In this document: piece after piece, positions 3,040 to 59,477 of the stretch
Layout: every line of letters starts with the position of its first letter
Numbering within the stretch: the first letter of the stretch is position 1
NCBI RefSeq assembly: GCF_035084215.1
Contig: NC_090332.1
Location: 29,016,001-29,080,000 of the forward strand
From: Heptranchias perlo
Taxonomy: Eukaryota
Reading direction: 5' to 3'
Length of the DNA stretch: 64,000 nt
Notes under the pieces: model-generated
Databases searched by the model: none
Seen by the model: the letters and a program-made list of their open reading frames with translations, nothing else
What the model was told of the DNA's origin: nothing
Program-made: the position numbers and the translations under genes

Positions 3040-3685
3040 AGTTTTCACCCCATCTCTTTTCTCCTTCCTCTTCTGAGGACGCGGATTCATCTGCAGATGA
3101 ACGAGTTCCGCAGATCCTGATGGTGACAGTGACTTATTCGTCATCTTGGAGCCTGGAGAGTTAGGGGGTGATTTTAAACCCCAAGAACAGGTGGGTTGGG
3201 GGCGGGTGGGAGTTGAAAACAGTTGTTTTTTGGGTCGCGACCGCAACCCGGCTTTATTTCCTGGTTTAACGTCGGCACGGAAAAGTACAGGCTTCCCACT
3301 GGGAATGCCAAGTCCGAGAATTTTGCGGTTGTGACCCAAAAAGTAACTATTTTCAACTCCCACCCGCCCCCCAACCCACCGGTTCCTGGGGTTTAAAATC
3401 ACCCCCTTAGTATCTGCAGCTAACTCAATATGGGGATACACAGCCGAGCCTGATTTTATCAACTAGAGTCTTTACGCATGCTCCTTTCATTGGTCGTCAC
3501 TGATAGCAATCAGAACGCTGGCTGTTTTTTTTCTCTCCTTTGCCTGGGACATTGAAACCGATTGTGTTACACCCATTACACCCCGGCTAGGCTCAGTAGG
3601 CTCTGAGGGATTGAACCAAGGATGTTTCTGATCTATATGTTCAGTAGCACACTGGGTGATACATTGGCCCACTAAGCCACCGGGA
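3040..3685 (-). mobile_element. LF-SINE-like SINE, old, interrupted by a MITE
   Basis: Similar to 47900-48275 and 9250-9512 (cacagccgagcctga, tcactgatagcaatcagaacgctggctg, gggattgaacc reversed B-box); resemblance to LF-SINE is from recalled consensus. Confidence 0.55.
3164..3406. mobile_element. PIF/Harbinger-type MITE (243 bp), family M1
   Basis: ~75 bp TIRs starting GGGGGTGATTTTAAACCCC; flanked by TTA (3161-3163) and TTA (3407-3409); near-identical copies at 13882 and 18497. Confidence 0.9.
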
Positions 3686-3788
3686 GAACTGGCCCTTCTA
3701 TTTTTATATGGCTTTGGTTGGGAATGTTCATGAGGCATCTAGTGAAGTTACAGTGGAGGAGAGGGAGCAACTCAAAGGAAATTCCTTA

Positions 3789-4846
3789 GAGTAAATTTTA
3801 ACCCCAAGAACAGGTGGGTTGGGAGCGGGTGGGAAGGCAAAAATTGTAAAACCCGCCTCCTATCCACTTCTGGTTTTAACAGAGGCATTTTGAGAGGCGG
3901 GCGACCAACCCGCTCTTAGGAGACAGGTCGGTCAGTAAAATCTTTTAAGGAGGCTGCAAGCCTCCATTTTGACATGTTTTTTACTTTTAACTCTGGGGGG
4001 CTGGGATTCCCGGGCCTTCTGATTCTCACCACATAAGAGGAGGCGGGAAAGCCTGAATCAACAGGTAAGTGCCTTTATTGCGCTGCTTGTGGGCCAGGAG
4101 GAGCAGGAGTGCTTCCTCCAGGCCTGACAAGCTTACCTGCTGCGATCCGACACACGTGATCAGCCGACCCCTCCCCCTATGTCCGACCCCCCCCTCCCAT
4201 GATCTCCGACATCCTCCACAATCTCTGACACTCGCCCCATGATCTCTGACCCCCCCACGAGCTCCGACCCCCCCCACTCCCCATGACTCAGGCCCTGATG
4301 ACTGACAACCACCGATGAGCACCGACCCCAATGTCCGACCCAATGACCACCGGCCCCGATGACCCCCCCCGATGACCGTTCCCGCCCCCTGTGACCGACC
4401 CCACCCAATGACCGACCCCCTGATGACAGACCGCCCCCCCCCCGATGATCAAGCTCCCTCAAATGACTGCCCCCCCGATGACTGACCCCCAGATGACTGA
4501 CCCCCCCCCACCCCATGACCGACCCTCCCGAAGACCAGCCCCCAACGTTGACCGCCCCTCCCCGATGGCCAGCCCCCCTGATGGCCAGCCGCCCTCCCAC
4601 CGATGACCGACCCCCCTCTCCACCCCCCCACCAATCTAAGACTAACCTGCTGGCATCCACTCCCTGGCTGCTCTCCCATCTGACTGACAGCCAGCCTGTC
4701 GGGCGGGAAACCTACTGAAAAAAATTGAAAGACATCCTTACATCAAAACAGTAAGGAGGTCCGGGAAACCCATACTTCTGGGTTTCCTGTCCTGAAACCC
4801 CTACCCCACCCACTCTCTTCCTGGCTCAACGTTAAAATTTACCCCC
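3789..4846 (+). mobile_element. Non-autonomous Harbinger-type element (~1.06 kb), family M2, with internal C-rich array
   Basis: Termini GAGTAAATTTTAAC / GTTAAAATTTACCCCC; left end shares ccccaagaacaggtgggttggg with M1; homologous inverted copy at 27270-28331. Confidence 0.8.
4160..4635. repeat. Degenerate C-rich tandem array (ccgatgacc/ccgacccc units) inside M2
   Basis: Many imperfect copies of cc(c)gatgac(c/t)gacccc; explains the Gly/Pro-rich spurious ORFs. Confidence 0.85.
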
Positions 4847-9512: not shown

Positions 9513-10799
9513 CCAACAACAACAGCAGCTTGCATTTATATAGCGCCTTTAACATAGTAAAACATCCCAAGCCACTTCACAGGAGAATTATCAAACAAAA
9601 TTTGACACCGAGACACATAAGGAGGTATTAGGACAGGTGACCAAAAGCTTGGTCAAAGGGTAGGTTTTAAGGAGCGTCTTAAAGGAGGAGAGAGAGGTAG
9701 AGTGGCAGAGAGGTTTAGGGAGGGAATTCCCCCGCTTAGGGCCTAGGCAGCTGAATGCATGGCCGCCAATGGTGGAGTGATTAAAATCAGGGATGTGCAA
9801 GAGGCTAGAATTGGAGGAGCCCAGAGATCTCGGAGGGTTGTAGGGCCGGAGGAGGTTACAGAGATAGGGAGGAGTGAGGCCATGGAGGGATTTGCAAACA
9901 AGGATGAGAATTTTAAAATCGAGGCGTTAACTTGGTGCAAGTTAGGATATGGGCAGTAGAGTTTTGGATGAGCTCAAGTTTATGGAGAGTGGAAGATGGG
10001 AGGCCGGCCAGGAGAGCATTGGAATAGTCAGGTCCAGGGGTATCAAAGGCATGGATGAGGGTTTCAGCAGCAGCTGAGGCGGGGCGGAGACGGGAGATGT
10101 TATGGAGGTGGAAGTAGGCGGTCTTGGTGATGCAGCGGACATGAGGTCAGAAGCTCATCTGAGGGTCAGATAGGACGCCAAGGTTGCAAATGGTCTGGTT
10201 CAGCCTCAGACAGTGGCCACGGAGAGAGATGGAGTCGGTGACCAATGAAGTTTGTGGCATGAACCAAAGACAATGGGCGTCATTTTAGCACCCGCTATCG
10301 GGTGCGTTCCTGGCGGGGGGGCTCCGAAAATCGGAGAATCCCGGAGCGGGACCGGAGCCCGCCTCGAACCCGCGCATTTCCGGGTTCCCCGCTGACGCAG
10401 CCCCCGCTGGTGGGAATCCCGCAGGCAATTAAAGCCAGGGGGATGCCACTTGAAAGTATTTATTTAGGTATTTCAGGTCATTAACTGACCTGATTAAGGG
10501 ATTATGCGAGGAGGGGTGGGATTTTAGAGCAAACTGGGACTGTTTCCCACACTGGGGGAAACACTCCCAGATCAAATGGACGTGTTGCAGCTGTCAGCCT
10601 GTGGCAGCTGCAAAGGTCCATTTGACAGGTGGAGGGGGGGAGACCCTCACCCATTGCAGGAGGCCACTCTGTCACTTGGGACAAAGTTTGGCCTCCACCA
10701 CCCTCCTCCTGACAATCAAAGTCACCAACTTGCACACTTACCCCGGGGTCCGGAGACATGTACCTACCTTGCGGACCCCCTCAGATGTACATCTTGCGG

Positions 10800-11285
10800 A
10801 TGGAGGCCGCCGTAGCTGCAGTCATGACCTCCTCGGAGGGTGAACAGCATCACCAGCCTCACCAGCCTTGCCATCCACGCCGTCCACCTCTGACACGTGG
10901 AGCTCCACAACAGAGTGCTGTGACACATCCACCTGTACAGCAGGAGGGAGGGCTACCGCAGAGAGAGATGCGTCGCAGAGGGCACTAGCCTCGCCACAGG
11001 GTCCACAGACCGAGGCTCAGCCTCCTGGACCTCTCTGAACAGCAGTGCACACGGAGGCTCAGAGTCACTCGACATGTAGTTGTGGACATCTGCAGCCTCT
11101 TTCATGCCGAGCTGTTCCTGGCTGGCCCGAGCACCATCTTCTTACCTGTCGCTGTCAAAGTCACCACTGCCCTCAACAACTTCTCCTCTGCATCGTTCCA
11201 GGGTGCAACCGGGGACATCGCCGACGTCTCTCAGTCGTCTGCGCAGAAGAGCCCTGCAAATACACCTACACCCACTCTGCAGTGA
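10800..11285 (+). pseudogene. N-terminal part of HARBI1-like Harbinger transposase (no DDE domain)
   Basis: DLSEQQC.RRLR.TRHVVVDICSL, LPVAVKVTTALNNFSSASFQGATGDIADVSQSSA; in-frame TAG at 10986-10988. Confidence 0.85.
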
Positions 11286-11800
11286 CACAATGGGTGGCAT
11301 CAGTTGTGGGTTCTCATAGTGATCCTCAGGAGAGGGCATTATTGCACAAACCAGACAGGATTCGCGAAGACATGGCAGTAGTGGTGCCAATATAATATGT
11401 AATGTGAGTTGTTCAGAAATTCAATATAAGTAACCACCATGACAAACCCTCAAACACCCTTGTGCATCCCCTTCATGCTCACGACATGTTTGCCTTACGC
11501 TTCCTACTGCACATATGTGATGCATGCCCTGTGGCAGGTTGAGTGAGGCTGGCCGTGAAAGAGATGCACGAGAGGGTGAGTATGAGAGAGAGCCATGAGA
11601 TTGTATGAGGATTGGGTTGAGTGGTAGTGGCGGGATGAGTACTGGCGAGGTGAGTAGGTGCAGGTACGATGAGGATGAGGTTTGAGTGGGTATGAGGGGT
11701 GATGTGACAGAGTAGTTAGTGTTGGCAGTGCTGAAGGAGATGTGGGGTGGGGGCAGTGATGTGGCAGACGGAGTGTAGGGGAATGAGTAAGTGTACTCAC

Positions 11801-12113
11801 TTTGGCTGACCTACTTAGGTCATTGCAGTGCCTCCTGCACTGTATGTTGGTGGTGCAGGTGACCTCACTTTGGCTGACCTACTGAGGTCATTGGAGCGCC
11901 TCCTGCACTGTATGCAGGTGGGCGATATGTTGGTTGCGCAGGTGACCTCCTCTGCCACCTCAAGCCAGGCCTTCCTGGTGGCCGAGGCAGGTCGCTTCCT
12001 CCCGCACGCCGGGAGGAAGATCTCTGTCCTCCCCCTCCTCCTCACCCCATGTATTGATACCTGGAGTGAGGCATCATTACACTGGGAGCAGCCTTCCCCC
12101 TGGGCTGCTCCAT
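11801..12113 (-). pseudogene. Exon 1 of Harbinger Myb/SANT-like (trihelix) partner gene
   Basis: KAWLEVAEEV...TCIQCRRRSNDL; GTGAG donor; frameshift near start; ~70 bp partial duplication of the exon end at ~11796-11865. Confidence 0.8.
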
Positions 12114-13881
12114 GCTGTAATTTTTGCTATTTGTTGCAGCATCTGTCAGTGGAGGACTGCCCCTTTAAATAGAGCTCCTCCAGCTGACAGATCTTACTGC
12201 GCATGCGCAGCCCGCCCGACGCGCAGATCAGCAGTGGGGAACCCGGAGGACCAGGTAGGTGGATCCAATTGGTGGATTGGATGCTACAATCGCGCGGGAA
12301 GCTGACTAATTTCACCGGGCGCGTTACCCGCGCGCCCGATAGCCCCCCCGCCGAGAACCTGCAGCCCTGCTAACATCAGGCCCAATGGCTTCGATCTTCC
12401 CAATATTTAGTTGGAAGAATTTTTGCTCATCCAGTACTGGATGTCGGACAAGCAATGTGACAAGCCAGAGGTAGTGGAGGGGTCAAGAGAGGTGGTGGTG
12501 AGGTAGAGCCGGATGTCATCAGCGTACATGTGGAACCTGATGTTGTGAGGGGCAGCATGCAGATGAGAAATAGGTGGGGCCAAGGATAGATCCTTGGGGG
12601 ACTCCAGAGGTAACAGTGCAGGAGTGGGAAGAGAAGCCATTGCAGGTGATTCTCTGGCTAGGACTGGATAGGTAGGAATAGAACCAGGCGAGGACAGTCC
12701 CACCAAGCTGGACGACGGAGGAGAGGCATTGGAAGACAATGGTGTGGTCAACTTGTGTCAAAGGCTGCAGACAGGTCAAGAAGGATGAGGAGGGATAGTT
12801 TACAATAGTCACAATCACGTAGGATGTCATTTGTGACTTTGATAAAGGCTGTTTCAGTGCTGTGGCAGGGACAGAAATCTGATTGGAGAGGTTCAAATAT
12901 GGAGTCGCAGGAAAGATGGATTTGGAAGGCGACAACAGGTTCGAGGACTTTGGAGAGGAAAGGGAAGTTGGAGATGGGACGATAGTTTTCAAGTCCAGAG
13001 GGGTCAAGGGTGGGTTTTTTGAGGAGGGTGCTGATGACGGCAGATTTGAAGGGAAGGGAACCATTAACAATATCAGCTAACATGGGGGCCAGGGAGGGAA
13101 GTTGGGTGGTCAGCAGTTTGGTGGGAATAGGGTCGAGGGAGCAGGAGGTGGGTCTCATGGACATGATGAGTTGGGAGAGGGCATGAGGGGAGATAGGAAA
13201 GAGACTAGAGAAAGATGCAAGTTCAGGGCTAGGGCAGTGGGGGAGCTTTGGAGGAAGTTTGGCTTTGTGGGCTAGGGGAAGGGAGGGAAGCAGCAGAGGC
13301 AACTGAATGGATGGTCTCAATCTTAGTGACAAAGAAGTCTATGAACTCCTTGCACTTGCTGTTGGAGGTGAGGATAGAGAGGGGTTTAAGAAGATGGTTT
13401 ATAGTGGAGAAGAGAAACCAGGGGCTATGTTTGCATTCCAGGATGATCCTGGATTAGTGAACAGTTTTGGCAAAGGAGAGCAGGACCCGATAGTACTTTA
13501 TATGGCCCAGCCAGATCTGGCGATGAATGGCTAAACCAGTTGCCTGCCATAAACATTCAAGTTTGCATCCCTTGGACTTAAGGAAGCAGAGATGAGGGCT
13601 GTACCATGGGGAGTGACCAGGGTGAGAGAGAGTAATGGTTTTAATGGGGATGTGGCATCAAAGGTAGAGGTCAGGGTGTGATTGGGCAGATTGGTAGCTG
13701 CAGAAATGTTGTGGTGAATGGAGGGCCAAAGGCCGTCTGGTTTCTGTAGTTTAGTACTGGACCAGGTGGTGCATTTACTCATTAGGCTGTTGGGGGTGCT
13801 CTAAACTATTTCTTATTCAAATTTTCACCCAGCAGTTTTACACAACTGATTAAACATTTGGCTATGTATCAGCCACATCAT

Positions 13882-14123
13882 GGGGGTGATTTTAAACCCC
13901 AAGAACGGGTGCGTTGGGGGCGGGTGGGAGTTGAAAATAGTTGTTTTTTGGGTCGCGACCACAACCCGGCTTTATTTCCGGGTTTAACGTCGGCACGGAA
14001 AAGTACAGGCTTCCCACTGGGAATGCAAAGTCCGAAAATTTTGCGGTTGTGACCCAAAAAAACAACTATTTTCAACTCCCTCCCGCCCCCAACCCACCCG
14101 TTCTTGGGGTTTAAAATCACCTC
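13882..14123. mobile_element. MITE family M1 copy
   Basis: Near-identical to 3164-3406, same orientation. Confidence 0.9.
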
Positions 14124-14189
14124 TGATATGACTGCACTGGAATACTCCATGGCATTGTACCAAAGGTAAATATCTGAAGAAACTGAGCT

Positions 14190-14550: not shown

Positions 14551-16580
14551 ACAAGTCAGGGCTTTCAGAAGGGGAGGTAGGAAAAGGAAGAAAATTGAAA
14601 AAAAAATATTATCTGAAGAAACTTGGTAAAAGACTTTGTCAGACAGGTCAGAAATATTGCAGAAACAGAATACTCTCATCTTCAAACAGGAACTCAGCCC
14701 TCCAGTGGTAAGAGAAATAATTTCTATTACAGGATACTGCTCTGGAAGCTGTTGGTAATGTTTATCACACGAGTGAAGGAGACAAGGTCACAAATTAGTT
14801 ATACAAGCCCCTTCATGACTGGAATAACATTCATTCTCAACACTTTCTTATGAAACATCTATTTATATGACATCTCCATTTCTGTTTTGCGATATTTTGT
14901 TAAAAAGTTAACAGTAATCTTACACTAGAGTTTTTGTCAGATATGGTAATAATTTTTTCCCTGTGGAGCTCAACAATGCCATAGCATTCCAGAGTGCATA
15001 GCAATAGACAGCATTGGTGCACATCGCAAGATAGGTTCGGACAAAGAAAGCTTCCTTGCTCCATTTGATCTCTTCCTTCCAGAATATGAACTCTACCACC
15101 TTCCTATTACAGCGTCGAGCATGTGGTGGTGGTACATCATAGTTCTACTACATCCTAGAAAAACATAACATAACATAGCACAACTCATAAGAACCAGTTG
15201 GTCAATAGTTCCAGTTAAATGTGTGCGTGTGTATATGTCAACTGGATATGGGAAAATGATGGAGAAGTTGTTCATCAATTTTATTTTGGTGTGTTTTATA
15301 TTGTTGCCATGGTAGATTATTAAAGGCATCCTGGTTTTATGAAGGATTTTTTTAAAAACACAGTGACAGAGGACTCATGATGCTATTTTTGAAAAAGCAT
15401 TTTTTTTACAGCATTAAACAAAATAGCGAGCGTGTGATTTTACTATATCCATGACATCCAATACGAAGTTGTTTGTTTTAACAAACAAGATGCTGCCAAT
15501 CATGATGCACTTGTAATAATAATCCTTCAACATTTCTCAAGTAGTTTGTGAGCTATTTAATGAGTATACACAAGCAAGAGTGCTAACACTGAGTCACGGC
15601 AAACATCTGGTAAATAAGTGAAGCAATGATAAATTAGGATCACCTTATGTTATATTGCATAACCATATCAAATGGCTTTACGTACAAATGGGATGAAAGC
15701 TAAAACATGTTAATTTAGGCTAATAGCCTGTGATTTCTATGATTGTTGTAAAATTAAACCTCAGTAAGCCATGCTGAGTTCCTGCCATTATTTTAACATT
15801 TATATCATGGTTCATGAGTGCTGACAATGATCCCAGGTTCCAGGTGGTGTGAAGCTGTATGAATTAGACCAGGTAACAAAACTAGAAATACTAGACATGT
15901 AATTTTATGCTTCTAGGATAGGCACAGAAGTGCAGTACATCCTTCCTAAAAAAAATGTTAATTTCAGTGGGGATGAAACTGAATTAACAATAAAAAACTG
16001 GTTGATCATTATAGAAATGTCATTTTATCCGAGTTTTAAGAGACCTTGGGCTCGATTTTGGGATCGTGTTTCCGGCGGGTTCCCAGCGGGGTGGCCCCGA
16101 AAATCCCGATATCCGGTCACGTGACCGGATCGCGACGAAATCCCGGCCACTTCCAGGTACCGCGCTGACGTGCGGGGCTGCGCGCGCAAGCCCCGCTGGT
16201 GGGAATCCCGCAGGCAATTAAAGCCAGCGGGGTTCCACTTGAGAGTACTTACCTTGCTCATTGTGGTCAGTTAATGAGCTGAAGCAGCTGTCAAAAGAGG
16301 AAGTGTGGGATTTTAGGTTCAAGGCAGTGAGTTTCCCACACAGGGGGAAACAGTCCCTCCTCAACCAGGCGTGTTGCAGCCAGCAGCCTGTGGCAGGTGC
16401 CAAGGTGCGCTCCACGGGGGAGAGCCCTCACCCACGCAGGAGGCCACCGCGTCACATAGGGCAACCCCTGCCCTCCACCACCCCCCGCCAAGCCAGAGGA
16501 CAGACCGACACGAAACCGCAGCCCCAGTCCGAGGAAGCACCCACCTACCCTGCACAACCCCTCAGACCAACACCTGCCAG

Positions 16581-17047
16581 ATGGGTGGTGTGTGGACACC
16601 CTCGGAGGACGAACAGCATGACCAGCACCAGCAGCCTCGCAGTCCACGCCGTCCGCCGCAGAGACGTGGATCCCCCCAACACGGTGTTGTAGCACGCCCA
16701 CCTGCACAGCAGGAGGGAGGGCTACCGCAGGGAGAGACGCATCGCAGAGGGCACTACCCTCGCCACAGGGTCCACAGACCGAGGCGCAGCTCCCCGGACC
16801 TCTCCGAGCAGCAGTGCACAGGGAGGCGCAGATTCGCTCGACATGTAGTCGTGGAGATCTGCAGCCTCTTTCATGCCGAGCTGCTCCTGGCTGGCCCAAC
16901 TGCTTACCTGTCGCTGTCAAAGTCACCACTGCCCTCCACACCTTCTCCTCCGCATCCTTCCAGGGTGCAGCCGGCTACACCGCCGATGTCTCTCAGTCGT
17001 CTGCGCGGACGAGCCCTGCAAATACACCTGCACCTACTCTGCAGTAA
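16581..17047 (+). pseudogene. N-terminal part of Harbinger transposase
   Basis: MGGVWTPSEDEQH...YPRHRVHRPR..PDLSEQQC...ICSLFHAELL; frameshift near 16900; LPVAVKVTTALHTFSSASFQ. Confidence 0.85.
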
Positions 17048-17576
17048 CACGATGGGTGGCATCAGTGGTGGGTCCTCATAGTGATACCCAGGAGCGGCCA
17101 TTATTGGACACAACGGACAGGATTCGCGGAGACATGGCAGTGGTGGTGTCAATATAATGTGTGCTGTTTGTTGCTCTGAAATTCAATATAGGTAACACCC
17201 ATGACAAACCCTCAGACACCCTTGTGCACCCCCTTCATGCTGACGACACGTTTGCCTTACGCTGCCTACTGCACATATGTGATGCATGCCCTGTGGCTGC
17301 AGCACAGGTGGTGGCAGGTTGAGTGAGGCTGGCCGTGAGGGAGATGCACGGGAGGGTGAGTATGGGATGGAGCAATGAGATTGTATGAGGATTGGGTTGC
17401 GTGTTAGTGGCAGGATGAGTACTGGCGAGGTGAGTAGGTGGAGGTAAGATGAGGATGGGGTTTGAGTGGGTATGAAGGGTGATGTGACAGAATAGTGTTG
17501 GCGGTGCCGAAGGAGATGTGGGGTGGGGGCAGTGTTGTGGCAGACGGAGTGTAGGGGAAAGACTTCATGTTCTCAC

Positions 17577-17821
17577 TGCGGCTGACCTACTGCGGTCATT
17601 GCAGCGCCTCCTGCACTGTATGCAGGTGGGCCATATGTTGGTGGCGCAGGTGACCCCCTCTGCCACCTCGAGCCAGGCCTTCTTGGTGGCAGAGGCAGGC
17701 CGCTTCCTCCCGCCCGCCGGGGGGAAGATCTGTGTCCTCCCCCTCCTCCTCACCCCATCTGATGATACCTGGGGTGAGGCATCATTAAACTGGGAGCAGC
17801 CTTCCCCCTGGGCTGTTCCAT
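17577..17821 (-). pseudogene. Exon 1 of Harbinger Myb/SANT-like gene
   Basis: FNDAS...KKAWLEVAEGV...WPTCIQCRRRCND; GTGAG donor; same early frameshift as copy A. Confidence 0.8.
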
Positions 17822-18354
17822 GCTGCAATTTGTTCCATTGGTTGCAGCATCTGTCAGTGGAGGACTGCCCCTTTAACTAGAGAGCCTCCAGCTGACAGAT
17901 CGTACTGCGCATGCGCAGCCCGACCGACGCGCAGGCCAGCGCCGTGGACCCCGGAGGAGCAGGTAATTGATTCCTATTAGTGGGTTGCCTGCTACGATCG
18001 CGTGGGCAACCCACTAATTTCGCCGTCCGCGTTTTCAACGCTCCCGGAGGACCACCCGCTGGGAACCCGCAGGCCTGCTAAATTCGAGCCCCTTCACTCT
18101 GCTTGTGGTATATACAGCAAAGTCCTTATGCTTAATCCCAACATGCATCCAGCTCCAACATGGTTCTATTTAGTCAGTTAAAGAAAGACTTATATTTATT
18201 CAGCATTTTATTACGTCACTCAGTAATGTCTCAAAGTTATGTGCAATTAATTATTTTGAAATGGATTAGCTAATTTTAGGTTGGCAAATTTAGCAGCCAT
18301 TTTCCTCATCGCAAAATCCCACAGACATCAATGAAATGAATGACTAGTAAACCT

Positions 18355-18496: not shown

Positions 18497-18723
18497 GGGG
18501 GTGATTTTAAACCCCAAGAAAGGGTGGGAGTTGAAAACAGTTGTTTTTTCGGGTTGTAACCACAAAATATTTGGACTTGGCATTCCCAGTGGGAAGCCTA
18601 TACTTTCCGCGCTGATGTTAAACCCGGAAGTAAAGCCGGGTTACGGTCGCGACCCAAAAGACAACTGTTTTCAACTCCCACCCGCCCCCCAACCCATCTG
18701 TTCTTGGGGTTTAAAATCACCCC
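18497..18723. mobile_element. MITE family M1 copy (inverted, small deletion in one TIR)
   Basis: Same TIRs; internal segment is the reverse complement of that in 3164-3406. Confidence 0.88.
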
Positions 18724-21230: not shown

Positions 21231-22190
21231 TCATAGAATCGTAGGCCTCGATTTTTACTGGTGGGCGCGTTCAGGTCGGATGGAGGTATGGGCGGGAGAG
21301 AAACCATCACGGGGTTTTGCAGCGTGTGGCTTGGGCCATTTTAACTCCCTGGCCTGATTTAAATATTGCAGCACTGTCTCCCTCCTGAAACCGGCAGGAC
21401 TGACTTTAGGGCCAGCCGGCGGGTGCGAGAAATTTGGCTTGGGAGCCTTAGGACGTCAAGGACCCAAAGGAACAGTCCTCGGCATAACCTCAGTGCAGGC
21501 CAAGGGCTTCGGCAACCGATGCCAGGTGCTGAGGGGTAGGCAAGGCCGGGTCTGGGGAGGCCCAAGGAATCCTTGTGTGGCCTGGGGGGGACACAAAAGT
21601 TATTTTAAAAAAATTACCCTGGTCTCCTCTGGTTAGTGCCTACCGCAATGGTTTGGCTGTCGAGTTCCACACAATGCGGGACTTTCCCTGACACGAAAAA
21701 CGTAAAAATCACAGCGCGGGCACCAATAACATCATTGAGCCACAGCTTTTAAAATTAAAGTAGGCCCCCACCTGCCTATAATGGGTGCCTCGGCCGACTT
21801 GAAAGTTGGCGCAGATGAATTGGGAATTAGGTCGTGCCAGGTGGGAACGGAACGACCTCAGGCCCAGTAAGTTGACCTAGCCTAATTTTAAGCCCACTGA
21901 TGCACCATTCTCGCTGGGTGAGGAGGGTTAAAATCAAGGCCATAGAATCTTACAGAACAGAAGAAGGTCGTTCAGCCCATCGCGCCAGGGCTGGCTCTTT
22001 GAAAGAACTATCCAATTAGTCCCACTCACCCGTTCTTTCCCCATAGCCCTGCAAATTTTTTCTTTCCAAGTATATATCCAATTCCCTTTTAAAAGTTATT
22101 ATTGAATTTTCTGCCACCACCTTTTCAGGTAGTGCTTTGTAGGTCATAACAATTCGCTGCGTAAAAAAAGTTTCTCCTCATCTCCACTCT
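21231..22190 (-). mobile_element. CR1 3' end with (catagaat)n tail, split by a MITE
   Basis: tcatagaatc|MITE|atagaatcttacagaacagaagaaggtcgttcagcccatc; similar to reverse of 59780-60030. Confidence 0.75.
21244..21941. mobile_element. Harbinger-type MITE (~700 bp), family M3
   Basis: GGCCTCGATTTTTAC / GTTAAAATCAAGGCC; gta/ata flanks; shares gccattttaactccc.ggcct.atttaaata with 32479-33128. Confidence 0.75.
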
Positions 22191-24446: not shown

Positions 24447-26040
24447 GGGCCAATTTTCACTCTCTCCAACTGGCAGGAATGATACGGGTGGGTGGAGGGT
24501 TAAAGTCGCTTCTGTGGCCACCCTGTACCCTTCCTACCTCCCCACTATTTTAACTGATTTGTCTGTGGCTGCATGTCAGGCGCCCGTTCCAGGCAAGCGG
24601 GGTTCCAATTAAAAGGCTGTGCTACGATGATGGCGCAGCCGCCCGCACTGCATTTTAACTTCAGTTTGTGAATGCTCCGCCCGGCTCTTGGACCCACCAG
24701 CAAGACCCAGCTGGATTGGTGTCTGAGAGATCCTAAAACAGTACAAAAGTGGGCTCTCAGCTGAAGCTCACTGGATCACATGATCTTTTCCTGCCTGGAG
24801 TGTTTCCAACTTCCAGATCGTGACTTCTACACTTTTGTTGCCCTACAGGTGAATCTTATTATGGGAACCATTCTTGCTGCTCTCTTTTGGATGGATGAAG
24901 ACTTGGAGGAGGAGGAGCAGCATCAGCAGCAGCCTCGGCAACCACCACCACCACCAGCTGGACGTCTCAGAATACACCAGGTGAGGGGGCAGGATCTACA
25001 GGCCGACTCGCCTTCCTGGACCTAACTGAGGGGCAGCACAGGAGGAGACAAGCTGCTGCAGACCACTGTAACCTCCTGCAACCCGACTTGCTACCTGCTG
25101 GGCTAAGGGGTGCATGCCTTGCAATGTGGCCCTCAATGTCGCCACAGCCCTGAATATTTACACCACAGGATCCTTTCAGTCTTTAACAGTGGAGCATCAG
25201 CCGCATCTCGCAGTCTGCAGTTGACAGCTGCATTAAGCAGATTACCGACGCCCTATTTTCCATGACCTTCCCCATTGACCTCAGCAATCAACAGGAGAGA
25301 ATTTGTGGTTTTGCGGCAGTTGCTGGCTTCCCTCGAGTGCAGGACATGATTGACTGTACACTAGTTGCCCTTAGGGCACCGGAACACGAGCCAGCAACAT
25401 TTGTCAATAGAAAAGGGTATCACTCTATCGATGTACAGCTAGTGGTCGATTACTGGAACAACATCATACAGGTCTGTGCAAGGTACCTATGGAGCTGCCA
25501 CGATGGTTTTATTCTATGACACTCTGACATCCAGAGGGATCAATGAAGCCTCAAGATATCAGGAGTAGGCTTTAAGGGCTATTGTTGCTTCTGGAAAGGC
25601 AGCAATGACTGCTTCCATAGATGGCCTGAAGAGCATTCTAGCTCTTACATAGGGCTATTCAATCTGCTGTCACGCAGACGATTAGCTCAACTGAGCCCGT
25701 GCCCATCCATTAGTGGACTGCAAGGAGTGGATGCAGATGTTGCTGCTTCTCATGGCAGTGAAAATGCACCTGCATCAATGCAGCCCTCTCCAAAGACAGC
25801 ACGTGAGGGAGCTTCTGGTCTGGACCTGGTAGGCATTGGACACCCAAGCAGCAAGACACCAGAAGCAGGTCCTCTAAGGACATTGACTTCACTGAGACAA
25901 GTGCCACCTCAGTCGCCTTGGGCTCCATCAGTAGAGTCCCAGTCACAAACCTCACAACCTCCTGACACTGAGGTAGCAGCATGTAAGAGTAAGAGGTTAG
26001 GAAAATGTAGCTGTAGTCGTAAAGCACACTGAAGGAACAA
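24447..26040 (+). mobile_element. Decayed, rearranged Harbinger element C
   Basis: TTA then GGGCCAATTTTCAC left terminus; transposase fragment followed by Myb-gene 3' region; right TIR not found. Confidence 0.7.
24861..25530 (+). pseudogene. HARBI1-like Harbinger transposase, truncated
   Basis: GFAAVAGFPRVQDMIDCTLVALRAP..FVNRKGYHSIDVQLVVD...VCARYLWSCHDGFIL (DDE_Tnp_4-like motifs). Confidence 0.88.
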
Positions 26041-27269: not shown

Positions 27270-28331
27270 GGGGGTGATTTTAAAACGGAGCTGGGAAGGG
27301 GCGGGGGGTCAAATTGAGGTCGGGAAACCCATTAGTACGGGTTGCCTGGACATCCTTACGATTTTGATGTAAGGACATTTTTTTTGTCGGTTTCCCGTCC
27401 GACTGACCGGCTGATTGACAGGCTGGTCTCGGTCAGGAGGGAGAGCAGCCAGGGAAGAGAAGTCTTCAGGTAAACCTGCAGGTAAGTCTTTGTTTGTATG
27501 GATGTGGGGGGGGGGAATGGGGGTCATGGGTAGGCCCTGAGGCATGGGTGGGCAAGGGGCATGGGTGGGCATAGGTTGGCACATGTTGGCATATGTGGGC
27601 ATGGGTGGGCATAGGTTGGTACAGGGGTCACGAGTCATGGGGGATGGGATCTGGGGTCAGTCACGGGGGGGAGTTTCGGGATCGGGGTCATCGCGGGGTC
27701 CGCGATCGTTGAGGGGGAGGGTTGGGGGTGGGAGGATCGGAGTGGGTGGATGATCAGGGTCGGCGGATTGGTGTCAGCGGATCCGGGTCGGGAGTCAGAG
27801 GGGAAGGATCGGGGTTGGGGATCGGGGGATCTGGGTCGGGGTTGGAGGGGGAGGATCGGGGTCGGGGGTCCCCGGTCGGCGGGGGGTGTCAGCAATCGGG
27901 AGTTGGGGATCCGCAATCGGGGGCCAGGGGTCGGCGACCATTGTGGGGGTCGGTGCAGGTAGGCTTGTTGGGCCTGGGGGAAGCACTCCTGCTCCTCTGG
28001 GCCCACAAGCTGTGCCTTTCTAGGCACCTACCTGTTAATCTAGGGCCTTTTCGCCTCTTTTCACGAGGCGTAAAACAGAAGGTTCAGGAATCCCGGCCCC
28101 CTGGGGTTGAAGTCAGGAATTGGTGAAAAATGGAGGGCTGAAGCTTCCTGGAAAGGTTTTAAGACCCGAGCCGCCTCCTGGGAGTGAGTTGGTCGCCCGC
28201 CCCTCATCCCGCCCCCTTGAAAACCAGAAATGGGCGGGTTGGAGACGGGTTGGGGTAAGGTCTGAAATGGTGGCAATTTTCAATGCCCCCCCGCACCCAA
28301 CCCACCTGTTTTTAAATTTGAAGATTGAGCC
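27270..28331 (-). mobile_element. Non-autonomous Harbinger-type element, family M2 (inverted relative to 3789-4846)
   Basis: GGGGGTGATTTTAAA left end; tccttacgattttgatgtaaggac and gcactcctgctcct..gcccacaagc are reverse matches to copy 1; G-rich array 27505-27950. Confidence 0.8.
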
Positions 28332-28499
28332 TTTTATCTCTCACTACCACATAGCCTCTTTCTTTCCCTTTCTCCTTTGATAGTATTTTCTCACTATTTA
28401 TTTCAGCTAAACCTTTTGTTCCTATACCAAAGGCTTTATTAATTCTGCTCTCCTTCCATTCTCTTAAACGTAGACTTTCCTCATCCTCTGCCATATTAG

Positions 28500-32478: not shown

Positions 32479-33128
32479 GCCCCGATTTTAACGGGGGCAA
32501 GGCTCGAGCATAGGCCTGCCCCAGTTGCCAACCTGAGGCCCAGGCCATTTTTTAACTCCCGGGCCTCATTTAAATAAGATAGCCTTGACTCCTGCCTCAG
32601 TCAATGATGTGTCGCCGGCGGGAACGAGTGGGGGAATGCGGCAGGAGGCTGCTGCCAGGGTCCCACAGGAATGGTCCCTAGCAAAATAAATTTGGAGTCG
32701 GGGGCAGCCCGTTGTTGGGGAGACCCTATGTTTCCTTGCGGGGCCTAGAGGGGCACTCCTGCTACTGCTGGCCCACAAGAAAACTAAAAAAAATGCATTC
32801 TTACCTTCTTGGCCCTCTTCTGGACCTGCTACCTCTTGGTGCCAGGTTTCATTGGCAAGGCTGGCAACAGGTGCCAATCTTGCGACGCAAAGTGAAAATA
32901 GCACCGAGGTCTGATTGACGTCACCAGATCCCAAATTTTGAATCTCAATAAGGCCCTCGCCCGCCTGGAGCAACAACCTCGCTGGCTGACCAAAACGCAT
33001 CTGCTAAAATGGCACGTGGGGTGAGGTGGGGGGAGATGTGATTAGTTGCACACTGCCACGATTTTACCCCGCCCCACCCCCACCCCATATGCTCCGTTTT
33101 CAACAGGCACAGGGGTTAAAATGAGGCC
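32479..33128. mobile_element. Harbinger-type MITE (~650 bp), M3-related
   Basis: GCCCCGATTTTAAC / GTTAAAATGAGGCC termini; internal similarity to 21244-21941. Confidence 0.75.
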
Positions 33129-33987: not shown

Positions 33988-35163
33988 TTAGAACACCAGG
34001 GGCACTCACACATATCCATAGTGCCCCTGCATTGGCAGAGATCAGATCTATAGTCACCACCAGACTACCAGTCATTAGGTGCCCACTAACTCTATCCACC
34101 ACCAGGTTACTAGCATTAAATGCCAGCCAATTTTGTACCAAGTGCCACAATCATGAGAAACTTGCAACAGAATACAGAAAATGATGTGCAGAGGAGTGCT
34201 ATGTCCCTTTCTGTCTCCCCATCATTTTTGATGTTGAAGCAGCTAGAAATTCAAACCTGAAGAGGTACATTTTGGGTCAGTTGTAGACCTCTCCAAATAA
34301 AGCCAAAATGGTCCAACGTAAATCACTTTGGATTATGAATTCCATTTGAAGCTCATCTCTGAAAATTAGTAGCCCAATCCTGCTGGTTCTGGAGCAATAG
34401 GTGGAAATAATGATAACTTCTATTTGAAAATATTGGTGTCCAAGACAGAACAATTCGAGAAATGGAAATAACCAACTACAAGGAAGAAAGTGAAGGGCAG
34501 CCAGCCAAAGTGACCACACATACTGCAAAGGTTCAATGTAGGGCAATAAATAGCATGACTGTCAAAGCATTGAAGACCAATAGCCTCAGATAACAACAAC
34601 TCGTGCTGTGACTGGAGCAGGTACACACAGTTAGCATTGCAGGCAGTGAGTAACACAAGCAAGTCAGTGAAGAACACTTACTAAAATTAAAAACAGAAAG
34701 GGGCGAGTTTTAACCCCCCCCCACGATGGGCGGGAGAGGGTCGGGGATTGTGGGGTTAAATCGCCAATTTCGCGAAACCCGACCTCAACCCGCTACGAGC
34801 GCCTGATTTATCCGCGGCGGGTTTGGGGGTGGGCGACCAAGTAAACCACTCTGGAGAGGTGGGTCCATAATTATAATATTTAAATGAGGTGCCTTTCCGG
34901 AGATTTTAGCAGTGTTTTGAAATTAATGCTTCTTGCACGGTTTTCCGGGGTTCTGGAAACTTATCAGTAAAATGGAGGCGAGATTGAACGGCACTTCATG
35001 GGGGTGGTTAAAGGTCAGGTGACCTGATATGAATAAAGGCTGAGTGATCACAGCTGCTTTGTCAGTTCCCTCTGGGAAACGGTTTGGTGAGAGTACTTGC
35101 TGTAAGAGGTTTATTTGTACAGTTTGATTTGTTCATACAGAGAACATCAGGTTAGGTGGTGTC

Positions 35164-36350
35164 ATGGCTGCTTTTGATTGGACTTCAGATGAGGAAGACA
35201 ATTAGCAACCACAGCAGCAAGGGCATGCCGTGGGGGGAGCTGCAGGTGGAGACAGAGAGGAGAGCAACAGGAGGGGTCGAGTTCACGGGAGGTACTACCC
35301 ACCTAACAGGGTCTACAGATAGAGGCTCAGCTTCTGTGGCCTCAGAAGAGCATTGCTTCTGGAGGCTGAGATTGTCACATCAGGTGGTGGCAGATATCTG
35401 CAGCCTCCTAGAAGACAACCTGCTACCTGCTGGACCTGGCGGCCACACATTACCAGTGGCTGTAAAAGTCACCACCGCCCTCAAATGTTTTGCCTCTGGT
35501 TACTTTCAGGGCACTACCAGAGACATATCGAGGGTGTCCCAGTTGGCTGCGCATAAATGCATACGGCAGGTGACCAATGGATTGTTTGCCAGGGCTGGGA
35601 GGTATGTAACATCCCCTATGATGACAATCGGCAGAATGAGCGGGCACTCGGAGTCACGTCGCTGGCTGGTTCCCCACAGGTACAGGGTGCCATCGATTGC
35701 ACGCACATGGCAATCCGAGCATCACCAGATCAACCAGGAGCATTTGTCATCCACAAGGGATTTCATTCCATCAATGTTCAGATGGTGTGCAACCACAAGA
35801 AAAGGTTGATGCAGGTCTGCACCAGATTCACTGGGAGCTGATATGATGTTTTCATACTGCGGCAGTCCAACATCCCCGACCTGTTTGTACCTGGAACCAG
35901 CCTTAAGGGATGGCTGCTAGGCAACAAAGGATACCCCCTTCAAACCTGGCTGATGACACCTCTGAGGAACCCCACCAACGAACACCAAGAGCACTACATT
36001 GCGAGCCATTGACAACCAGATGTGTCATCGAGCAAGCCATCAGCATGCTCAAGGTGCACTTCAGGTGCCTGGACAGGTCTTGCAGTGCCCTTCAGTACTC
36101 GCCAACGAGGGTTTCTAGGACACTCGTGGTGTGCTGCATTCTGCACAACATTGCGCAGCAGTAAGGACTAGAGGTGGAGGAGGAACAAGCCACTCAGCAC
36201 TCTTCATCTGATGAGGATTCCAATGGAGAGGAGGAGGAGAACAAGGAGCAAGATGAGGACAATGAAGACGGAGCCTCCAGTGTCAGAGCAGCTGCTCACG
36301 TTGCTACTCGGGATGCCAGGGATGCCCTAATAGCTCAAAGGTTCAGTTAG
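35164..36350 (+). pseudogene. HARBI1-like Harbinger DDE transposase, full length with stops and frameshifts
   Basis: LPVAVKVTTAL, QVQGAIDCTHMAIRA, HKGFHSINVQMVC, RFTGS..DVFIL, WLLGNKGYP..WLMTP, TTRCVIEQAISMLKVHFRCLD, CCILHN, acidic tail. Confidence 0.95.
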
Positions 36351-36649
36351 TCACTCACACTGGACCAAAATAACTATCACATCTCCCAGCCCCTGCCCCC
36401 CCCACACCACTGACACAAAGCAGTCCTGTAACTAACCATCCACGCATTGCACATCTGCCAATTGGTCCTCGTCAATTCAATTCTTCGCATTCATCACCAA
36501 GCAACTGAAAACGCGAGTTGCCCACTCGGTACACAAGAATGGTGAACATGGGAAAGTGGTGCAAATTAATCAATTTTATGACAATAATTAAATAAATGAA
36601 ACTAAATAACACAACATTTTCATGAACACCCATGTGCATACCCTTAGTG

Positions 36650-38511
36650 AGTTACAAAGCTTTTATTTTTCTTTCTCTACTGCTCCTACCTGGTGCAATC
36701 CCTGTGGCTTCAGCAGAGGTAGAGGCAGGCTGCACTGATCCCTGCTCTGACTTCTGAGATGCTCATGGCCGACAACCTCTGGGTGTTGGAGCCCGTGAGG
36801 GCCTTGCCAAAGACTGCTCCACCTGCACCTGAGCAGGGGCAGACTCAGCCATTGGGAGAGAAGGCAGCATATTGGATACTGGTTGAGGTGGGAAGGGGGG
36901 GTAATAGGTGAGACGTGCGAGTGCTTTGAGTGGCCTCCCCACTTCCATGTTCCCTTTCAGCATCGTCTCTCTCCTGGGCCAGCGGCACATCACTCCTACC
37001 TCTCTGCGGGTGAGCAGCTTGGAGCAGATCAGTGACACCTTGTAAGGCCACGGCTAAGGTATCTGTCATCCTGTGTAAGGTGGCAGAAATTTTGGCATTC
37101 ATAGTTTGCACAGCTGTGGTCAGGGCATGCAGGGACTGATTAGATTGCTGCGATTGTGGAGGCCACTCTATCCATGGATGACATCCTCGCAAGGCCTACA
37201 ACATCAATCCACTTATGCTTGAGCAGGACTCCTCCATCCTCTCTGCTATTGTGGAAAGTGTGCCAGGCAGGAATGTCAGTACCACCCAATTTGCTGCTGA
37301 CCCTCTATCGTCCTCCTTTTCATTGATGGCCCTCCTCGCGTTCAGCATCTCTGTTCAGCTGAGCAGAGCTTGGAGAGAGCTGTGCCCTCCGACGCGGACT
37401 CTCCACAGCTGTCCCGACCACCACTGCTAGTGCTCACTAATGAGCTGTGATTCACCAGGTGAGAACCCATCTAACTCCCTAACACGACCCACCGAAGTGC
37501 TCGTATCTGTGCTGGTGCCTGGCAAGCATGTGTCCTGTGACGGTTCACCCTCAGAAGGAATCAGCTCCTCTCAGGATACTTTGTCCTGAAGGGCCATGGG
37601 TTGCTGTTCTTCGCGTGATGGCCCTGGAGGAGAGAAGAGATGGATATGATTTAGTCATCGGAATGTAAAAATGTTGAAATTCACATGATTAAGTGTGATC
37701 ATATTTCATTCGGTGCTGAAATCAAGTCGACATGACTTGGTCTTGTATGAGATGTGGGTCAGAGATATTTAATGCTGTCACCATGTAGCAGCAAAGTCCA
37801 AGTTTCGCCATCTCCGATAGTCAGGGACGCTGATATCCTGCTTATCTCCATGGCATCCTCTACAGATGTCAACTGCACAATCTGTGGCGGGCCACTTCCA
37901 GTCTCCTCCCTCTCTCTTGTATTTTGGGCTTTTTTTTCTCCTGCGAGGGGGTACGTCAGACCTATGAGTGTCTGTAAGGCATGTGTGCATTTGATGGATG
38001 CAGTGTATTCGATGAGAGTGACTATCAAGCAGATGCGTCACGAGTGCCACTGGCATGTATTTGAGGATGTGCGCTGAGAATCGGGTGAGCTGACTGAGGT
38101 GTGATCACATTGCATAAGGATCGGGGTGGATGGAGAAAGGGGGAGATGAGCAAGTGCATTGAAAGGGAACGATGTGTGCTGCTGAAACTTAAGTGGCTGT
38201 GAGGAGTGATGTGATGGAGTACGCTTGACAAGATAGTGAGAGAGTGGGGGTGGGGGGCAGAGTTGCTGTGCACGTTAGAATGTAGGTGAATCTGCAACTG
38301 TGCTCACCTTTCCTGACCTGGTTAGGTCATTAAACCACTTCCTGCACTGGATCACTATAATCCTGCTGCTGACCTCCTTAGTCATCTCTAACCACATCTT
38401 CTTGGTCACAGCAGCAGGTTTCTTCTTGTCATACCTCCTTCCTGGTTCTTACTGCACCCAGCAGTGCATTAAATTGAAGCGGGGTGCAGCCTTTGACCTT
38501 CCTGATTCCAT
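36650..38511 (-). pseudogene. Spliced Myb/SANT-like partner gene of element D (3 exons: ~38308-38511, ~37782-37940, ~36650-37623)
   Basis: MESGRSKAAPRF..IQCRKWFNDLTRSGK|gtgag; cag|EKKAQNTREREETGSGPP; third exon low-complexity/coiled-coil. Confidence 0.8.
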
Positions 38512-38952
38512 CTGTTAATAATTTCCTCTCTCTTGAAATGCTCCCAACTCCTCCAAAGTCCAACTTTGCATTGGCCCTTTAAATAGTCGAGGTGAAATTG
38601 GGAGGAGTGGGGAGATGGGGGAGGCGATCGGGAGGGGAGGGGTGAGACTGGGAGGGGGGGCAAGCAATCGGGTGTGGGACGGGTGAGTCCGGACGAGGGG
38701 GGAATACGATTGGGAGGAGGCCGAGCGGGGGCCGACAACAGACTTTGGCACTGCAGTGGAGCTGGGAGGAAATTTAAATATTGCTGGGATGGTCAAAGGC
38801 ACATGTCCCATCAACAACTGACCAGTTACATCAGGAGGTCTGGAAAATTCCTGGAGGGGGGAGCGGAGGGGGAACCCTTTGGAAGGCCGTAAGTGTTCCA
38901 TTTAACGCTGGACTACTCTTAAAGTGGTAATAGCATACAGCAATATGAAACC

Positions 38953-51580: not shown

Positions 51581-51810
51581 GGGATAAGACTTTCCCTCAA
51601 TGTGGATTTCGGGTAACTGGCCAATTGTGCTGACAGGAGGGCCGGGCCTCATTCACACAGGGACGGACAGCTGCGGGTGGAAAACGAGCGCCCTGGGGTC
51701 ACCCTGACCCGTTGGACAGCAGCCCAGGTTGTTTTTGTGAAGTTTGGGGAAGCACACTTGCTCCTTCCAGCCCCACAAAAATAAATGAGAACTTACCTTC
51801 TGGGCTTCTC
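51581..51810 (-). mobile_element. GC-rich MITE remnant carrying the donor-plus-hairpin module
   Basis: ccgggcctcatt and ggggaagcacacttgctccttccagccccacaa..cttacct resemble 32560-32806; termini unclear. Confidence 0.5.
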
Positions 51811-53269
51811 TTTGGCTGGAGTGCTAGCTGAAACTGTATGGAGGGTACATAGTGCATACACTGCCCAGGCACAAGATTTTAGGAATGATGGGAGATGAAT
51901 ACTTACTTTAGTCAGGATAGCAAACCAATGACATTTAATATATGGGACTGTGGAGTGCTTGAAACCTCTGCTTACTTCAGCATCTATTCCTCATTTTGGG
52001 GGAAGTGGACCTTTTTTTGAGAAATGAGACTTCAATTTCAAATTCAAGAACTGTCTCTGAAAACTCAGTGATTTACTGTTCCTCAAACTCCGAAACCAGC
52101 ATGTTTACTGCCTTGTGGACTAAGCAAAACTGGGCACTCAGGCAGCAAATCACACAACATGGGGTAAGCGCGGAACTTCGCAAACCAGATTTGTCGGCGG
52201 GATGTTGCGCTAAATCGCTTCTTTTACTCATAGCGTGTTCATTCATTGCTTGATCCGCTGGGACCAGCATTGAAGTCAGCTATTAGACATGGGGATATGG
52301 GAAACTAGGGGGAAAGCTACTTTAACCAAAAAGGAAACAAAAAGACTGTACATTTCTTCCTAAGCAGTATCTGCAGTTTATCTAGTGGCTCCTTGTAGGT
52401 TATTGAACGCCTTTGAGCAACTTAATTGAAGTTCTTCCAAATACTATATGAAGGCCATCCATGCTGGTAACTCAGCTGTAATTCAAAACAGACCACAGGA
52501 CCTTTAGCAACGGTTTTATATCCATAAAACGGGAGGCTGTATTCCCAGTAGAATAATAACTGCATTTTAGAATGATTTTATTTCTGTGCATTTACAAGAT
52601 TGTCTCTTCTAAGAATATCGATAGATGATTTATTGTAGCAAGGGTTGTTACAGTAACATGTTCCAAGTGGCTGCACACTATTGCTTTAGGAATCCCTTTC
52701 TGACATATTTGCTCTTCCTTTGTATAGCCAGCCATCTGTGCCACACCTGTGGAATATGAGATCTGCCCAACAATTTATTGTGTCCCACCCAAATTTCATA
52801 TTACTAAATGGATCAAGCAGAACTTCGTCCTTCTAGATGTTATATCTCGTTTTTAAAAATTGAGATAAACCTTTCCCAATTCGCCTCCTATTGTACCCCC
52901 GCCACTGCCCCAATCCCTGTGGGTCATACATCAACAGTGGCTGAGCAGGTGGCCAGGTTAGCAAGCTTCTCCCAGGCCCGCATCAATGCTGAATCAGTCA
53001 CTAGTGGAAACATAAAAGTATTTGAGTCTTTGGGGAAGCCATTCTATGCCACTCAGCTCCTCCACCAAGCAATGCGTCTGAGATTGAGAATACAACAGAC
53101 AAGTTGAAAATGTTGGGCTCTTATAACTCAGTTTCTCTTGTTAATTGTCATGAAAACACTTTCCACTGATCGACTTCATGCACGTTTATTTCTCTCCTGT
53201 CACTATTAATGCTCCAGTTACACAGAGGAGCCTCTTTTTACCATACAGTTGCAGTCATAATTCTTCACT

Positions 53270-54230: not shown

Positions 54231-55040
54231 TCATAGAAACATAGAAACATAGAAAATAGGAGCAGGAGTAGGCCATTCTGTCCTTCGAGCCTGCTCCGCC
54301 ATTCAATATGATCATGGCTGATCCTTTATCTCAATACCATATTCCCACTCTCTCCCCATATCCCTTGATGCCTTTTGTGTCTAGAAATCTATCTAGCTCC
54401 TTCTTAACTATATTCAGTGACTTGGCCTCCACAGCCTCCTGTGGTAGAGAATTCCACAGGTTCACCACCCTCTGAGTGAAGAAATTTCTCCTCATCTCAG
54501 TCCTAAATGTCCTACCCTGTATCCTGAGACTGTGACCCCTCGTTCTGGACCCACCAGGCAGGGGAAACATCCTCCCTGCATCCAGTCTGTCTAGCCCTGT
54601 CAGAATTTTATACGTTTCAATGAGATCCCCTCTCATTCTTCTAAACTCTGGTGAATACAGACCTAGTCGACCCAATCTCTCCTCATACGACAGTCCTGCC
54701 ATCCCAGAAATCAGTCTGGTAACCTTCGCTGCACTCCCTCTATGGCAAGTATATCCTTTCTTAGGTAAGGAGACCAAAACTGCACACAATACTCCAGGTG
54801 TGGTCTCACCAAGGCCCTGTATAACTGCAGTAAGACATCCTTGCTCTTGTACTCAAATCCTCTTGTAATGAAGGCCAACATACCATTTGCCTTCCTAACT
54901 GCATGTTTGCTTTCAGTGACTGGTGTACAAGGACACCCAAGTCCCTTTGTACATCAACATTTCCCAATCTTACATCATTTAAATAATACTCTGCCTTTCT
55001 CTTTTTCTCTCCGAAGTGGATAACTTCACATTTATCCACT
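54231..55040 (-). mobile_element. CR1 LINE 3' part
   Basis: (catagaaa)n tail; LSYEERLGRLGLYS.EFRRMRGDLIETYKI. Confidence 0.92.
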
Positions 55041-55172
55041 TTGGAAACAGACAGCCTGGCCATTTTCTCTGCGCAGGCCGCCCGAGGCCTATTTAAAGCA
55101 GAAATGCATATTTAAAGTGAGGTTACATTCCTTGCTTTCACATTTCACTGTCCCACTGCTGCAAGGAGGGGA

Positions 55173-57260: not shown

Positions 57261-57384
57261 TAAGAAATTAATAGAAGGCAATTATTGTGTTGGTAATTAA
57301 ATTCATCACCGTTATCACATTTGGCAATTTAGTCTGCAGTATGGTTTAATAGCAGCTTCTGAGTTGGCATTGTCAGTATATCAT

Positions 57385-57490
57385 TGACTACAACAGTGAC
57401 TACACTTCAAAATTACTTCATTGGCTGTAAAGCATTTTGGGACATCCTGAGGTCGTGAATAGCGCTATATAAATGCAAGTTCTTTCTTTT
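57385..57490 (+). mobile_element. SINE 3' part with L2-type tail
   Basis: acagtgactacacttcaaaa.tacttcattggctgtaaagc..tttgggacatcctgagg...gcgctatataaatgcaagttcttt. Confidence 0.75.
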
Positions 57491-57614
57491 AGAAGCTGGC
57501 TGAATGGTTTCAATGTTCTATAATGCAGGTTTGAGGGGGTGTTGAAGGATGTAACACGGACTGTTAATTGCAGAGGGGCTTTGTGTAAGTTTTCAGGGCA
57601 GGGGAATGAGCAAG

Positions 57615-58752: not shown

Positions 58753-59477
58753 GACAGGAGATAAAGTTTACTAAGCGTGAGTAACGGGGAAAAAAATCAC
58801 AGAAAGAAGTGATCTGCAAGGTGGAATCTCTCCTGGCAATTCAAACAGCTCAGTGGCACACAGGTCCTATGATCATATACTTGCAGTTGAGTGTCCCTTT
58901 AAACACAGCTTCAGTGGCTCTGAGAAACCAATCCCACTAGGTTTCACTGGTGAGTTGGGCGGTGGGCAGCACGTCCGTGATTTCGCGTTAAAATAAGCCT
59001 GGGTCCTAACTGTGTCATTGGATCTGCATGTATTCATAACCCCACCTGCCTCTGGGAGGGTGCCTCAGTTGACTAAAAGAACTGCATGGTTAAAATGGTA
59101 AGACCTCTCCAGCAATTTTAACCACCTGTTCTCCTGCTCTGCTCCTTTTGGGTGAGCAGGATTAAAATCATCCCTTAAGGTTTTGTACCTATGGGCTTTG
59201 TGAAGTAGCAGCATTCTAGAAGTTATAGTGCACATACTGTTGGCAGAAAGTGACTCTGGGCATTCTTGGAGTTTCATCTATAGAACGCTTGCACAAAGTG
59301 ACATTCGGGTATTCTGGGAGTTGTAGTCTGCCAGCTAGTCGAGGCCCTTCATTCAGCTGACCGAGTGGTAGTTCTGTTGTTTAGAGCTATTTTAAACACA
59401 CCACACGGTTATGTAGGTAATTTTAATCATATTCGTGTGAATTTTTTACATCGTTAGTATATTAGAAATCCCAATAT

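Follow-up and report, generated by a model that had tools for sequence, protein, structure and literature searches.

Ten families of non-autonomous PIF/Harbinger elements in a shark genome share a conserved central palindrome next to a splice-donor-like motif

Non-autonomous DNA transposons are usually viewed as stripped ends around dispensable filler. The closest described counterparts of the elements reported here, namely the rice elements mPing and mPong and the Stowaway element Ost35, are likewise short, non-autonomous and mobilised in trans, with mPing belonging to the same superfamily, and their internal regions raise or lower transposition; the available text describes no sequence-specific internal motif common to these elements (PMC9921582). 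In contrast, one palindrome is common to all ten families of shark elements analysed here, whose likeness elsewhere is about 50-70%. The zebrafish Harbinger3_DR is likewise a two-gene Harbinger system, in which, according to the accessible part of the source, a Myb/SANT protein recognises short motifs located inward of the termini; those sites are 9 bp long, subterminal and carried by the protein-encoding element (PMC9710019), whereas the module is central, about 50 nt long and found in non-coding elements. The NuwaII and PIF-Harbinger groups of PHIS, as far as the available text describes them, likewise have GG-starting terminal repeats, a 3-bp target duplication and partner elements encoding DDE and Myb/SANT proteins, with C and G enriched one base outside the duplication (here in 21/50 and 24/50 copies); the duplications observed here differ from those of the PHIS groups in being mixed NWN triplets (ATA, AAT, ATT, TAA and others) rather than strictly TNA (PMC4482050). 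The T2-MITEs of Xenopus (Kolobok) are likewise long-lived vertebrate non-autonomous lineages that persist and diversify, although they belong to another superfamily and the available text describes no shared internal palindrome (PMC6004289). Literature searches, including the core strings and the combination of MITE, donor, stem-loop and Harbinger, found no description of the module, the families themselves possibly being catalogued in Dfam or Repbase; the available part of PMC5753468 holds nothing bearing on it, and a metagenome scan with the 25-nt core gave 0 matches, which is uninformative for a vertebrate repeat.

In the window, the whole stretch of 64,000 nucleotides of Heptranchias perlo DNA under analysis, the first-pass annotation had listed five instances of a module consisting of a splice-donor-like motif followed by a hairpin with a GGAG loop, and the coordinates, strands, donor-like motifs and stems of all five were reproduced. 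Each site lies within a short element with terminal inverted repeats (Table 1). Two of the instances, the one at 51731 with an AGTG loop and the one at 21570 with its loop deleted, deviate from the consensuses of their own families, both of which have GGAG.

Table 1. Module-bearing elements in the window, with one coding Harbinger for contrast
Feature	Position	Strand	Remarks
Family A1 element, non-autonomous PIF/Harbinger	3788..4845	+	90% identity to A1 consensus over 843 aligned positions; terminal inverted repeats; CTT on both flanks (3-bp target duplication)
AG/GTAAGT motif, 5′ splice-site-like	4062..4070	+	GT at 4065; also resembles trihelix GT boxes
Central palindrome	4085..4132	.	Core 4097-4118, spacer 4 nt
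Second copy of GGTAAGT motif, inward-facing	4641..4647	-	After C-rich linker; decayed in this element
Second A1-type element	27270..28332	-	81% to A1 consensus; motif GT 28031; palindrome 28010-27963; opposite-strand motif 27481-27487
Family B1 element	32479..33128	-	79% to consensus; motif GT 32804; palindrome about 32784-32729
Family C element, 5′-truncated	about 51583..51868	-	Left end gone; motif GT 51796; palindrome 51781-51732
Family D element	21244..21941	-	82% to consensus; motif GT 21617; palindrome core deleted, remnant ends at 21568
Decayed coding Harbinger, contrast case	34700..38900	+	Transposase +, Myb-like -; right boundary approximate; left end 69% identical to family G over 285 nt; module absent

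Searches of the 3.25-Gb genome, with four of the five window sites and four more variants as queries, each returned at least 40 scored matches. An iterated profile found 49 matches in 1.26 Mb of unselected genome (33 at E<0.001 from 864 kb, plus 16 from 400 kb that had been held out) and none in reversed-sequence decoys. The density is one module per 26 kb and falls to one per 29 kb once the 264 kb surrounding the window are left out. Provided that this sample is representative, about 1.1-1.3 x 10^5 copies (about 100,000) would be predicted for the genome. Clustering of 262 matches resulted in ten families of 7-37 members (244 matches) and 18 singletons. The family consensuses, each built from at most 26 copies that were mostly retrieved by similarity to a module-containing query, are 655-886 nt long, have terminal inverted repeats starting with GG and can be aligned colinearly over their length; the families are thus related to one another. 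The 50 copies with both ends range from 447 to 1311 nt. Five near-identical copies of family F within 30 kb (L260, L265, L269, L270 and L278; G000 C2 56.99-57.02 Mb) are likely to represent a local tandem duplication.

Exact 3-bp target duplications, taken at the best 3-bp offset, were present at the ends of 18 of the 50 two-ended copies, with a central base that is mostly A or T; the copies are old, so many duplications have decayed. At their left ends, the families are similar to the transposase-side ends of various coding Harbingers, partners for some families, not every one, being present in the sample: identity is 82% over 207 nt for A2, 69% over 285 nt for G, 72% over 131 nt for E and 74% over 139 nt for A1. 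These partner elements carry a DDE transposase (PF13359) and a Myb/SANT gene (PF13873). Based on the terminal repeats, the 3-bp duplications and the ends homologous to coding Harbingers, the module families are assigned to the non-autonomous PIF/Harbinger (PHIS) elements without coding capacity.

Among these families, the module is better conserved than the rest of the consensus, as had been proposed. Identity between consensuses is 0.83 in the 50-nt core, a segment picked because it looked conserved, compared to 0.51-0.62 in eight other 50-nt segments, including both ends, and 0.47-0.55 in shuffled sequences. The accompanying claim that flanking sequence is much less similar holds between families, but part of the gap is due to CpG decay, CpG positions making up 15-16% of the flanks versus 3% of the hairpin. 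The predicted stem covariation was also recovered: in the basal stem, 61 of 80 cells outside the TGT/ACA anchor are Watson-Crick paired, with 12 extra pair types, against a label-shuffle mean of 38, where pairing was read from the same sequences and the resulting p of 5e-5 is too small, as the ten families are related and their independence is overstated. Module distances agree with flank distances (left, rho 0.56, p 0.0015; right, rho 0.52, p 0.003), which favours descent and disfavours a recent transfer of the module between families through conversion.

A different picture was obtained for individual inserted copies. Of 39 copies located through their left end, 28 retain the hairpin, deletions, truncated loci and coding elements being among the other 11 rows; in the 28, non-CpG divergence is 13.6% in the hairpin versus 19.6% and 20.8% in the flanks. 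When only the nine copies at least 80% identical to their consensus are considered, the hand-summed values are 52/426 (12%) versus 213/1502 (14%), and this narrowing suggests that the gap mostly reflects unmodelled subfamilies. After allowing for subfamilies and CpG, inserted copies decay close to neutrally, and selection on individual copies is therefore unsupported. Conservation between families, in spite of near-neutral decay after insertion, suggests that the module was likely selected in those lineages that kept transposing. The module is thus real, abundant and part of a non-autonomous Harbinger clade, and it is apparently under selection.

Coding Harbingers were compared for the presence of the same module. 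As a part of the element itself, it was found in none of 70 transposase 5′ regions (some truncated and some near-duplicates) and none of 36 Myb 5′ regions, the sole strong profile matches there (L109 and L130) being separately inserted family C elements; likewise, for the 34 coding segments of the held-out sample, no match was located at a distance of 1.5 kb or less. Families A2 and G track the left end of a coding element for 200-370 nt before the module begins, at which point the coding element runs on toward its gene. The same genome also contains young coding elements whose transposase frames are long and open, and a rare coding carrier of the module elsewhere in it is possible. At the outward-facing position of the GGTAAGT-like motif, coding elements have GGTAAGT, GGTAATT, GGTAAAT or non-donor forms, and 6 of the 18 with letters there (20 aligned) are donor-like. 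These observations bear on the proposal of the first-pass annotation that the module is a regulatory switch at the start of an intron: it is missing from the coding elements examined, where a gene to regulate would exist, and a switch in the first intron of either the transposase or the Myb gene is rejected, L109 and L130, the only strong matches in those 5′ regions, being inserted elements. Within the window, decayed Harbingers in which transposase and Myb genes converge, or of which the transposase part alone is present, occupy 34700-38900 (+), about 54900-59180 (-) and about 24447-25550 (+), the latter two having left ends that resemble families B and F by eye; the module is absent from all three.

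The interpretation to which about an even chance of being correct is given here is that the strand-symmetric palindrome and the adjacent GGTAAGT constitute a DNA-level element that would aid mobilisation by proteins made elsewhere. The stem is kept paired through double changes and displays no strand preference. Selection would have targeted those copies that continued to transpose, and a non-coding cut-and-paste element has no known need of its own RNA for movement, so that lineage-level selection would most simply operate on DNA. In mechanistic terms, two inverted GGAGGAGCA half-sites and GGTAAGT would be putative binding sites for a Myb/SANT-like transposase partner or a host factor, and/or the palindrome would extrude or bend the DNA, allowing the two ends to meet more easily. 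Internal MITE regions promote transposition according to the available part of PMC9921582, and the Myb-like protein of Harbinger3_DR is described as binding a subterminal DNA motif (PMC9710019, in the part available).

The AG/GTAAGT motif is located 29-44 nt before the core in 10/10 consensuses, always on the GGAG strand, and a related motif in the opposite orientation occurs near base 74 in six families and 100-300 nt past the hairpin in seven. In plants, trihelix proteins recognise GT-2 and GT-3 boxes, whose cores are GGTAAT and GGTAAAT (PMC4267404, available text), and the partner protein of Harbinger has a Myb/SANT/trihelix domain (PMC9710019, available text); GGTAAGT may therefore be a DNA site instead of, or besides, a splice site. 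Against a DNA role, a site for the elements' own proteins would be expected in coding elements too, where the full palindrome is absent, and an RNA role would explain a perfect donor in every family as well. Moreover, GGAG is kept in nine of the ten families, and no shared sequence-specific internal enhancer was found for mPing and mPong, according to the available part of PMC9921582.

An action at the RNA level is improbable but is the best placed of the alternatives. Here, the element would be transcribed from a retained left-end promoter, U1 would recognise the donor, and the transcript would work through its hairpin or through a small RNA derived from the hairpin, for example by keeping the element transcribed and unsilenced, which is the earlier idea minus a gene to regulate. 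The 5′ splice-site consensus AG/GTRAGT is matched in 10/10 consensuses and always on the strand that reads GGAG, the covariation is real, and promoter-like motifs, which we take to be CRE-, octamer-, YY1- and ETS-like, were counted upstream in several families. Among the data sets listed as containing the stretch, none was RNA. Family sequence is found in contigs of three runs guessed to be RNA; however, at least four contig pieces cross the donor unspliced and, among the joints and loose ends listed for these runs, none falls at 28031/28032 or 27481/27482. The peak of contig depth over the module follows from its conservation at 80% likeness.

Folding does not single out the donor strand. Three of the five window copies fold better on that strand and two on the other, and the opposite strand is as stable or more so in eight of the ten family consensuses under RNA parameters. 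Substitutions had been described as G-U compatible on the donor strand, but no such enrichment was found: G-T and A-C mismatches are about equally frequent, the outcome fixed beforehand as contradicting an RNA structure, both in the consensus stems (5:7, a small sample of 12) and in the copies (259:266 among 4,585 cells, p=0.79). The loop is not invariant either. GGAG is the commonest loop in nine of the ten families, the exception being family H, a near-perfect palindrome with TTAA in 15 of 24 copies and with GGAG absent from its four commonest loops. This rules out a LIN28-type GGAG loop, the link raised in the first-pass annotation, as an essential feature. The likeness to the pre-let-7 element bound by LIN28 presumably consists in GGAG adjoining a stem, whereas here GGAG is a 4-nt spacer in a strand-symmetric palindrome. 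Against Rfam, neither the window nor 8 loci gave a match that reached the gathering score, the best being mir-3155 (E 0.48, 24.5 bits versus a cut-off of 70), and the absence of the module from coding elements also counts against a role in RNA. Thus, of the selected cis-acting RNA structure originally proposed, the selection appears to stand, in view of the conservation and covariation, but neither action as RNA on the donor strand nor the reading as an RNA switch is supported. The module is a well-supported description with an inferred function, apparently not a new RNA switch.

It is still more doubtful that the module is under no selection, with template switching or arm-to-arm conversion during excision repair keeping the palindromes matched and the CpG-poor core merely being slow to change. 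Palindromes are indeed plentiful in these elements, at 2-10 per consensus versus 0.1-0.9 in shuffles, many of them at matching positions with different sequences, and they are nearly all Watson-Crick and strand-neutral (665 Watson-Crick pairs, 12 G-T and 10 A-C outside the focal stem). In seven young coding elements, 0-4 palindromes were counted per 520 nt of left end and 0-2 per 520 nt of coding DNA. The scarcity of CpG in the hairpin and the near-neutral decay of inserted copies also agree with a lack of selection. However, conversion can match arms but cannot hold a sequence, and the other palindromes changed while the core stayed at 0.83. The 5′ arm is steadier than the 3′ arm (conservation 0.92 versus 0.81) and is fixed where the 3′ arm decayed in families A1, A2, G and D, which fits a reading of the module as sequence. 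Among inserted copies, compensatory double changes are not in excess (29 versus 28.8 expected), and thus no ongoing palindrome repair was seen.

A similarly low probability is attached to a host-facing DNA element, either as a host-factor site for open, unmethylated chromatin or as a captured fragment (the collapsed stem of a CR1/SINE 3′ tail, or a collapsed Myb promoter) serving as a decoy against silencing or autorepression: a 12-mer of the core is common to tails that are presumably CR1/SINE-type and a 13-mer from family H is also found in a Myb promoter, but these matches are only 12-13 nt long, purine-rich, near-periodic and found after the fact, the two proposed sources are mutually exclusive, and the profile is non-significant against Myb promoters (E 0.14 and 0.3). 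The 22 matches of the core 12-mer in 864 kb comprise 11 modules, 5 automatically classed tails, 5 tails recognised by eye and 1 other. Tails of this type with the 12-mer are located in the window at 39434, 54258 and 22958 (+), and removing the inner loop of such a tail would yield a near match to the module core.

With regard to the broader meaning of a DNA-level or other role, conservation between families is higher in the core than in the terminal repeats, and none of the coding elements examined has the core as a part of its own. A tentative and rather unlikely extension is that a long-lived, gene-less Harbinger clade evolved its own sequence-specific core, which was kept while taking ends matching different coding lineages, and which would let these parasites out-compete others or escape control, whether as folded DNA, as a protein-binding pair or as a U1-bound RNA hairpin. 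SINE superfamilies have conserved central domains, and the core, if this were true, would be their DNA-transposon counterpart and a portable booster for Harbinger vectors. If the core promotes mobilisation, it would help to explain why some MITE lineages outlast their helpers.

Several further features of the Harbinger complement were noted. The sequence GGAGGAGC occurs 19 times in 36 Myb-upstream regions, mostly next to the TATA box, and in Myb promoters genome-wide, as well as at window position 12182 (-), the Myb TATA box lies between inverted TGGAGGA half-sites, which makes an autoregulatory site possible. Locus L171 (G000:C1:65938424-65941882) contains an open 411-codon frame for a Harbinger-type transposase of a divergent kind; no terminal repeat is visible over the 1.1 kb upstream of it, and it may be a domesticated gene. 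At 10275-12385 and 16050-18092 in the window lie two related Harbingers with internal deletions, 79-86% alike and 5.7 kb apart, in which a 5′ fragment of the transposase and the remains of a Myb gene are kept. Finally, a separate fold-back family of about 240 nt, with ends resembling the A1 left end, is represented at 3163-3407, 13870-14134 and 18497-18723.
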